Made by a program: the position numbers and the translations under genes. From Escherichia coli (GTDB lineage: Bacteria; Pseudomonadota; Gammaproteobacteria; Enterobacterales; Enterobacteriaceae), in the NCBI RefSeq assembly GCF_003334815.1, contig NZ_QOWO01000029.1: a DNA stretch of 52,109 nucleotides. One strand, 5' to 3'. Shown in pieces: positions 22,775 through 22,816 of the stretch (the stretch's first letter is position 1; each line of letters starts with the position of its first letter). The notes below the pieces were generated by a model. That model saw only the letters and a list, made by a program, of their open reading frames with translations. It made no database searches and was not told the DNA's origin.

Positions 22775-22816
22775 GTTCCCTCTCACCCTAACCCTCTCCC
22801 CGGTGGGGCGAGGGGA
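22775..22816. repeat. GC-rich small intergenic repeat, inverted copy of the fepB-leader element
   Basis: gttccctctcaccctaaccctctccccggtggggcgagggga is close to the reverse complement of 15303-15342. Confidence 0.55.

Follow-up and report, generated by a model that had tools for sequence, protein, structure and literature searches.

A mutated BoxC element in the cstA–ybdD spacer of Escherichia coli and a possible role of its central hairpin at RNA 3′ ends

Overview of the cstA–ybdD locus

The window analyzed here, by which we mean the whole stretch of 52,109 nucleotides, is E. coli K-12-like DNA. Its segment 22000–23600 contains the 3′ end of cstA, ybdD and hcxA and is 100% identical to MG1655-type chromosomes; coordinates in NC_000913.3 are obtained by adding 609273 to the window coordinates. 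The gene of the pyruvate transporter CstA occupies 20621–22726 on the plus strand, with its stop codon at 22724–22726. It is followed on the same strand by ybdD (22909–23106), which encodes a small protein reported to be necessary alongside CstA for pyruvate uptake (PMC5847655). Three features are found in the spacer between them: a G-run just behind the cstA stop codon, a complete BoxC element on the minus strand, lying in the 3′ flank of cstA, and a single REP on the plus strand. The MG1655 RefSeq annotation of the cstA–ybdD region lists only coding genes and no repeat features, and the name of the repeat was therefore taken from the literature.

A scan of 22400–23300 predicted neither promoter-like nor intrinsic-terminator-like sites, so that a classical intrinsic terminator or a separate ybdD promoter is not supported. 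In other genera the spacer can be as short as 14–60 nt, which leaves no room for a ybdD promoter and thus supports co-transcription of the two genes by inference. On these grounds cstA and ybdD are probably co-transcribed, as far as the sequences tell. Hwang et al. 2018 was checked for a statement on a cstA–ybdD operon or on RT-PCR, and none was found.

Identity of the repeat

The sequence-only reading had quoted a GC-rich unit, which we located at 22775–22816, and had called it close to the reverse complement of a unit in the fepB leader. The alignment bears this out. The arms 15288–15341 and 22779–22832 form an inverted repeat of 54 nt with 83% complementarity, the longest in the window and rank 1 of its 92 inverted pairs. 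A 36-nt type A core pattern, with N at the three loop positions, matches 15306–15341 (+) without mismatch and 22779–22814 (−) with one, while shuffles of the window gave 0.00 matches. An nhmmer profile was then built from the 23 other K-12 copies, leaving out the three copies of the window; it matches 22777–22835 on the minus strand (E 4.4e-14, 47.6 bits, 59 nt) and finds nothing further in the rest of the window except the pair of copies between fepB and entC. With the window copies included in the model, the element spans 22776–22836. The similarity to genomic BoxC copies thus extends across the whole element of about 56 bp, and the limits 22775–22816 proposed earlier are too short.

The family is large. 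Of 5,426 complete E. coli genomes, 5,411 gave matches in a blastn search with the 63-nt unit, at 71,233 places altogether and with a median of 15 and a maximum of 26 per genome. It had been proposed that two copies some kilobases apart define a small dispersed family; the dispersal is correct and the copy number is not, since three copies lie in the window and 26 in K-12. That the likeness to the fepB-leader unit would be a chance product of GC-rich sequence has, apart from the general GC-richness of the unit, nothing in its favor. The rank-1 pair, the shuffles, the E value and the number of genomic places all speak against it, and we regard this explanation as practically ruled out.

In K-12 we located and aligned 26 BoxC copies at 21 loci, comprising the published listed loci and two degenerate copies which surfaced in the Term-seq table described below. 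All 26 are intergenic by annotation, and the family is thus multi-copy, dispersed and strictly intergenic. BoxC is also carried by many other Enterobacteriaceae, where it is likewise confined to the spaces between genes. Nineteen of the 21 loci lie downstream of at least one stop codon, including the operon spacers glnH–glnP, pstA–pstB and yihS–yihR. Two copies are found in the cryptic prophage CP4-6, near yagE and argF (MG1655 282099–282135 and 289244–289278; our loci L091 and L092), and BoxC therefore occurs also in horizontally acquired DNA.

BoxC was the name under which the motif entered the literature in the 1990s; Maher's group later called it the PIT (potential intrastrand triplex) element, and Holder et al. 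2015 called it TMECO (PMC4666352). The TMECO pattern is CCCTCNCCC-N3–6-GGGNGAGGG-N3-GGGNGAGGG, and Table 1 of Holder et al. lists 23 MG1655 copies, among which the cstA–ybdD copy does not appear (PMC4666352). The GenBank record carries 33 BoxC features of 51–59 bp (PMC5172473, Table 1). The main text of the HusR paper does not contain the term BoxC, and no Rfam family covers the element in a search of 14500–24000 at E ≤ 1. The supposition that the unit may belong to one of the described intergenic repeat classes of E. coli is thus confirmed by both papers, and it is essentially certain that the cstA–ybdD unit is a copy of BoxC (PIT, TMECO). The family itself was already known, and the present copy is a mutated member left out of the 2015 catalogue.

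Architecture of the cstA–ybdD copy

The nhmmer limits and the alignment of the 26 copies define a complete BoxC of type A with a TTA second loop at about 22776–22836 on the minus strand. As throughout the family, a C-rich block is followed by a G-rich one complementary to it and then by another G-rich block, and a conserved flank completes the element. The G-rich strand, which bears the triplex motif, is the minus strand, and the cstA mRNA consequently carries the C-rich strand. Block 1 (22805–22814, −) reads CCCTCGCCCC on the minus strand and GGGGCGAGGG on the mRNA, where it forms the 3′ arm of a central hairpin. Block 2 (22792–22801, −) reads GGGGAGAGGG on the minus strand and CCCTCTCCCC on the mRNA and forms the 5′ arm, with the hairpin loop at 22802–22804 in between. 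Block 3, the third-strand block (22779–22788, −), reads GGGTGAGAGG compared with the consensus GGGTGAGGGG.

Adjacent to block 1 lies a conserved tail at 22815–22836 (−), GACTGACCGAGCGCGTTGATA on the plus strand. It is the counterpart of the family flank, which reads GYGCNCGGWCRGT on the G-rich strand. This flank is common to the type A copies, on the side of the C-rich block, and since it is conserved among them the element measures about 56–60 bp and exceeds the 36-nt triplex core. The conserved tail CTGACCGAGCGCGTTGATA therefore belongs to the element, which ends at about 22835/22836. Copies were divided into subtypes by their second loop, TTA in type A and CCG or similar in type B. The TTA loop and the 5′ flank GCGCTCGGTCAGT of the cstA–ybdD copy agree with the type A consensus and assign it to this subtype.

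The strict TMECO pattern matches only the two fepB–entC copies in the window. The cstA–ybdD copy fails at block 3, which reads GGGTGAGAG against this pattern. The lesion is a T at 22781 on the plus strand, equivalent to a G-to-A change on the G-rich strand. The same position is C in O157:H7, 504239, LP26 and CB6837 and T in K-12, and in O157:H7, LP26 and CB6837 the strict pattern is satisfied at this locus. The absence of the copy from the list of 23 TMECOs is therefore explained by a C-to-T change in the K-12 lineage which breaks the third block. As judged from its sequence, the K-12 copy is a mutated member, falling in the category “TMECO mutated” of Holder et al.

The cstA–ybdD copy shares with other BoxC/PIT/TMECO elements the architecture CCCTCGCCCC-N3-GGGGAGAGGG-TTA-GGGTGAG(G)GG, the conserved flank, the strictly intergenic position and the type A character with its usual single stem mismatch. 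It differs from them in the mutated third block, in being one of just two K-12 loci with a REP within 150 nt, and in an upstream G-run able to pair with its third block. This G-run, GAGTGAGGGGGGG, lies at 22731–22743 on the plus strand, and together with block 3 it forms a predicted stem-loop, SL1, of −23.2 kcal/mol. All E. coli alleles examined keep it, as do most of the other Escherichia loci collected, and its geometry agrees with that of the inner arms of the fepB-type inverted pair. The G-run may be the remnant of a lost inverted BoxC partner.

The inverted BoxC pair between fepB and entC

The unit in the fepB leader had been taken for a single copy. It turns out to be one half of an inverted pair. 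The type A copy at 15287–15346 (+), previously the “fepB-leader unit”, is TMECO no. 7 (MG1655 624579–624614, +), and the type B copy at 15364–15413 (−), inverted with respect to it, is TMECO no. 8 (MG1655 624676–624641, −); both identities hold by coordinate and by sequence (Holder Table 1, PMC4666352). The pair folds as one long hairpin with a z score of −3.09. Sub-threshold Rfam matches to mir-188, mir-3151 and mir-343 on 15307–15402, obtained in the search of 14500–24000 at E ≤ 1, were rejected: these animal microRNA families are artefacts of the long GC-rich hairpin.

A published and very strong Term-seq 3′ end is located at window position 15407 (−), MG1655 624680(−), with 103,563 reads in LB 0.4 and 243,213 in M63. 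Within the fepB leader it is 170 nt ahead of fepB and, in the direction of transcription, 4 nt short of the first block of the pair; its Rho score is 0.375 (“No”) and its intrinsic terminator score 1.39. One possibility is that a short leader RNA ends here; alternatively, the hairpin of about 100 nt formed by the pair may have a pausing or processing site at its base.

RNA folding of the spacer

Folds were computed with ViennaRNA, allowing Watson–Crick and wobble pairs. The central hairpin of blocks 2 and 1 (22792–22814) has nine pairs with one internal mismatch and an energy of −17.2 kcal/mol for 22790–22818. It is found in both the MFE and the centroid folds of the spacer and is thus a stable RNA hairpin by this measure. 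Taken in its entirety, the K-12 spacer folds no better than shuffled versions of itself (z −1.07), and because this value is unremarkable the case rests on the individual hairpins. No U-tract is found 3′ of the central hairpin.

RNA 3′ ends at BoxC copies

For a comparison with transcripts we used the Term-seq data of Adams et al. 2021, in which 1175, 882 and 1053 curated 3′ ends are listed for MG1655 in three conditions, from uniquely aligned reads (PMC7815308). One of these ends falls inside the element, at window position 22825, MG1655 632098(+), with 1686 reads in LB at OD600 2.0 and the class “orphan” (PMC7815308, supplementary files 1 and 3). It lies 11 nt past the central hairpin and before the REP, at a distance of 84 nt from ybdD. 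We checked the register of the table's sequence column against coordinates (50 nt before the end nucleotide, that nucleotide itself and 10 nt after it), and the listed flanking sequence is exactly that of the cstA–ybdD BoxC. It is the sole curated 3′ end within 631900–632499 on either strand in any condition (PMC7815308). An in vivo 3′ end is therefore present directly downstream of the hairpin, with a weak signal at cstA–ybdD of 1686 reads in one of the three conditions of one study.

A search of the Term-seq table for BoxC substrings revealed 3′ ends 4–5 nt after the central hairpin at five other K-12 copies: 164636 (+) between hrpB and mrcB, 847200 (−) between glnH and glnP with 30,000–130,000 reads, 3781065 (+), which is the primary 3′ end of lldD, 3959467 (−) downstream of ppiC, and 4231270 (−) downstream of yjbD with 42,000 reads. 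These ends occur with BoxC in both orientations, which implicates the hairpin and not the third block. A genome-wide Poisson estimate gives 0.17 expected coincidences against the six seen (P about 3e-8), under a crude and generous null that ignores the concentration of 3′ ends downstream of genes and behind stable hairpins in general. BoxC is not mentioned in Adams et al. 2021 (PMC7815308).

The copy in the glnH–glnP spacer (MG1655 847191–847227, −; L095) is degenerate and absent from the list of 23 TMECOs. It separates the binding-protein gene glnH from the membrane-component gene glnP, and the end 847200(−) follows its hairpin by 4 nt. REPs occupy the operon spacers malE–malF and hisJ–hisQ, and the BoxC between glnH and glnP has the same classic arrangement.

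Stable hairpins in transcribed regions generally collect steady-state 3′ ends, and REPs are described as exonuclease-resistant 3′ structures (PMC6061677). Because any stable hairpin tends to collect 3′ ends, their association with BoxC does not prove that the element is kept for that purpose. The earlier suggestion of a role in mRNA processing or partial termination is plausible and has partial, indirect support. The end 632098(+) and the five ends behind other BoxC hairpins speak for it. The reporter tests of PIT elements speak against it, as do the missing U-tract, the lack of a predicted terminator and the about one quarter of genomes without the element at this locus. In these tests by Hoyne and Maher, as related by Holder et al., promoter activity, terminator activity and an effect on RNA polymerase were all negative (PMC4666352).

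We also considered that the C-rich, G-poor half of BoxC on the cstA mRNA would be a putative Rho loading (rut) site, at which Rho ends some transcripts before or inside ybdD. The composition of 22775–22801, with 16 C and 1 G in 27 nt, would suit such a site, Rho-dependent 3′ ends are typically found just past stable hairpins without U-tracts (PMC6061677), and no intrinsic terminator is predicted in 22400–23300. However, 27 nt is short for a rut site, 10 of these 27 C-rich nucleotides are sequestered in the hairpin, and no Rho termination region is reported here on the plus strand, the nearby one being on the minus strand with its peak at 631994 (PMC7815308). The Rho experiment of Adams et al. 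used exponential-phase cells, in which cstA is poorly expressed (PMC7815308). On balance we find a rut site improbable. The minus-strand region itself peaks at window position 22721, MG1655 631994(−), antisense to the 3′ end of cstA, with a Rho score of 4.49 and a significance of 7.9e-6 (PMC7815308). Presumably hcxA read-through across ybdD, the REP and BoxC is stopped there by Rho just past the repeats.

Neighboring REP and variation among strains

The proposed adjacency to a REP is also correct. The single REP at 22839–22876 (+) is an exact 38-nt duplicate of 905–942; the shared 38-mer TTTGTAGGCCGGATAAGGCGTTCACGCCGCATCCGGCA thus occurs twice, 21.9 kb apart. As RNA its hairpin (22846–22875) has −20.9 kcal/mol, and the Rfam search of 14500–24000 gave a sub-threshold match to naRNA4, which is REP-derived, at 22845–22886. 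A composite BoxC–REP element was considered and rejected, as a REP lies within 150 nt at only two of the 21 K-12 BoxC loci and the presence of the two elements among strains is independent.

The spacer is polymorphic. With a 401-nt query over it, 4,097 of the 5,426 E. coli genomes reach at least 80% coverage and about 1,329 only 59–77%. BoxC is retained at cstA–ybdD in about 75% of these genomes, and about 24% are without the central hairpin. Nine representative alleles were aligned and show at least five allelic states. K-12 and O157:H7 have BoxC with REP; strain 504239 has REP and a BoxC from which 6 bp of block 3 and loop 2 are deleted; LP26 and CB6837 have BoxC without REP; WR3-3 has REP without the BoxC hairpin; and UPEC-774U, FEX669 and GN05476 have neither the hairpin nor REP. 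The presence of BoxC thus varies from strain to strain independently of that of REP. Where both elements are absent the BoxC tail CCGAGCGTGTTGATAGC is retained, and B2-type strains keep the tail with the hairpin missing; by this sequence pattern the strains with neither look like deletion derivatives. In three B2-type loci without BoxC hairpin and REP (L002, L003 and L004) a small inverted repeat, AGCCCTCTTAATTCAGGAGGGC, is observed about 25–50 nt upstream of ybdD.

Two independent lesions, the K-12 substitution and the deletion of 504239, both hit block 3 and leave the central hairpin intact. Within the central hairpin of the aligned alleles variation is confined to the loop, which is GGT, GAT or GTT.

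These data bear on a role at the DNA level, in which the G-rich strand, when single-stranded, would form an intrastrand purine-motif triplex that stalls replication or repair and raises local variability, an idea put forward for TMECO by Holder et al. TMECO oligonucleotides of the consensus sequence do form very stable triplexes in vitro (CD, NMR, Tm 70–82 °C), and TMECO loci vary more than control sites among 56 strains (PMC4666352). The at least five states among nine sequences at cstA–ybdD would fit such an instability. However, once the complementary strand is present TMECO forms a duplex and not a triplex, and in vivo DMS footprinting gave no support for the triplex (PMC4666352). In the K-12 copy the third block is broken and the stem bears the usual mismatch as well, so that a triplex formed by this copy should be weaker. 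Instability would moreover be a consequence and not a function of the locus. We consider a role through the triplex unlikely.

The central hairpin is missing here from about 24% of E. coli genomes, and REP from some of them too; the element is therefore dispensable. The strains without the BoxC hairpin carry other small hairpins at the locus. The main rival to an RNA role is that BoxC is selfish or neutral and functionless at this locus, having arrived and decayed by insertion, recombination or slippage, with the 3′ end as an incidental result of a GC hairpin. The presence/absence polymorphism, its independence of REP and the about 1,329 of 5,426 genomes below 80% query coverage would all be expected on this account. 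The genes flanking TMECO show no functional bias, and local variability is raised (Holder et al., PMC4666352). Steady-state 3′ ends, too, are set by stable hairpins in general (PMC6061677). Evidence on the other side comes from the comparison of species.

The spacer in other species and in the paralogous operon

With YbdD as the probe, the cstA–ybdD region was collected from 80 loci of species-representative genomes (L010–L089); 77 spacers were extracted and 74 were long enough to fold. Of these Enterobacteriaceae spacers, 64 of 74 have z < −2 against dinucleotide shuffles, with a median of −3.5. Three species have spacers of 14–20 nt without a hairpin. Nearly all of the 77 spacers contain a GC-rich stem-loop, and its origin differs between them. 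Simple CCCTCTCC/GGAGAGGG hairpins are found in Citrobacter, Kosakonia and Salmonella arizonae, a terminator-like hairpin in Atlantibacter, and an Enterobacter-type REP and a Kluyvera-specific hairpin are among the further spacer elements. A single BoxC beside a REP is present in a MAG (L040) and in a Leclercia (L075). Full inverted BoxC pairs occur in at least seven genera, including Enterobacter asburiae and hormaechei, Phytobacter, Pluralibacter, Leclercia, Lelliottia and Pseudocitrobacter. The BoxC central hairpin is missing from the other Escherichia loci collected (E. albertii, E. whittamii, an Escherichia sp. and an E. coli representative); their spacers combine a REP-type element with a short hairpin that is related to the stem of the G-run. 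The paralogous btsT–yjiX spacer of MG1655 (49 nt; L109:4081–4129, −) has an 8-bp GC hairpin followed by the U-rich UUUGUUCUU; it is terminator-like and has a z score of −3.07.

One locus of this collection, L014 (NZ_JARVKW010000112.1, 465 bp, coverage 0.73), is labelled Streptomyces sp. DH24 and encodes a YbdD 98% identical to that of E. coli. It is almost certainly an enterobacterial contamination of that assembly.

The independent acquisition of type A, type B or paired copies in the spacers of Enterobacter, Leclercia, Phytobacter, Pluralibacter and Pseudocitrobacter would again agree with a selfish or neutral element. A strong stem-loop is nevertheless kept in 64 of 74 species despite the turnover of elements, and one is found in the btsT–yjiX paralogue too. 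This persistence speaks for selection on the hairpin, though not necessarily on BoxC itself. A comparison of filled and empty spacers in Enterobacter and Leclercia (L033/L040 and L087/L075) found no target-site duplications, and no transposase or mobility mechanism is visible in them. We know of no transposase, target-site duplication or mobility mechanism for BoxC. We therefore rate a functionless BoxC as possible and, with the conserved stem-loop in view, rather doubtful. In general terms, the cstA–ybdD spacer is either selected for a stem-loop or a hot spot for the insertion of palindromic elements.

Functional interpretation

The reading we favor, and hold to be fairly probable, is that of a BoxC copy whose central hairpin acts in a REP-like way as a definer and protector of intercistronic RNA 3′ ends, splitting cstA-only from read-through transcripts. 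The working part of the locus is most likely the RNA hairpin of blocks 1 and 2. It would be transcribed within the cstA–ybdD message, beside the REP hairpin. There it would block 3′-to-5′ exonucleases, like REP and other intercistronic stem-loops, and it would possibly also pause RNA polymerase or terminate it weakly. Some transcripts would then end just after the hairpin and give a stabilized cstA-only mRNA, and the remaining ones would read on into ybdD. We infer this mechanism of an exonuclease barrier or attenuator, as well as any selective value, from the placement of the element, the 3′-end maps and the conservation of a hairpin across species, which are all consistent with a role in RNA. 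The weak signal from one study, the offset of 11 nt compared with 4–5 nt at the other copies, the dispensability of the element in a quarter of strains and the negative PIT reporter tests weaken it.

Two known systems are similar. Like REP/BIME in operon spacers, BoxC is palindromic and rich in GC and lies between cistrons or at 3′ positions, its RNA hairpin lacks a U-tract and has 3′ ends just downstream, and its presence varies among strains. It differs in its unrelated sequence, in the presence of a third block and in a copy number of tens and not hundreds. To our knowledge BoxC, unlike REP, has no RAYT-type transposase or protein partner. The stem-loops of Rho-terminated transcripts (Dar and Sorek 2018) are, like the BoxC hairpin, stable and not followed by a U-tract, and in both cases a precise 3′ end lies within a few nucleotides behind the stem. 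They are mostly unique sequences, however, whereas the BoxC hairpin stems from a dispersed repeat, and the cstA–ybdD 3′ end lies inside an apparent operon and not at its end.

A broader proposal can be offered tentatively, and we give it somewhat less than even weight. BoxC would then not be chiefly a DNA triplex motif; its central hairpin would be a REP-like module defining 3′ ends in vivo. Selection across the family would maintain a stem-loop between the two genes of the CstA/BtsT–YbdD/YjiX operons, which would set the mRNA ratio of transporter to small subunit. Each lineage would fill this slot with a palindrome at hand, be it a simple hairpin, a local REP, one BoxC or a pair of them. If true, this would be the first physiological role of BoxC, and it would explain why the lesions in E. 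coli fall in the third block and spare the hairpin.

The naming of the repeat closes an earlier question, and the element turns out to be a textbook-era one of E. coli. BoxC has been without an accepted role for about 30 years, and the literature searched treats it as a DNA triplex motif tied to genome instability. A comparison of its copies with published 3′-end maps reveals ends just after the central hairpin at six loci, including the operon spacers glnH–glnP and cstA–ybdD, and a hairpin is retained in the cstA–ybdD spacer of dozens of genera. This is a modest and testable refinement and not a new kind of system. If the favored reading is true, BoxC would be, like REP, a module that can be used repeatedly to form mRNA ends, and post-transcriptional control may determine the CstA:YbdD ratio.
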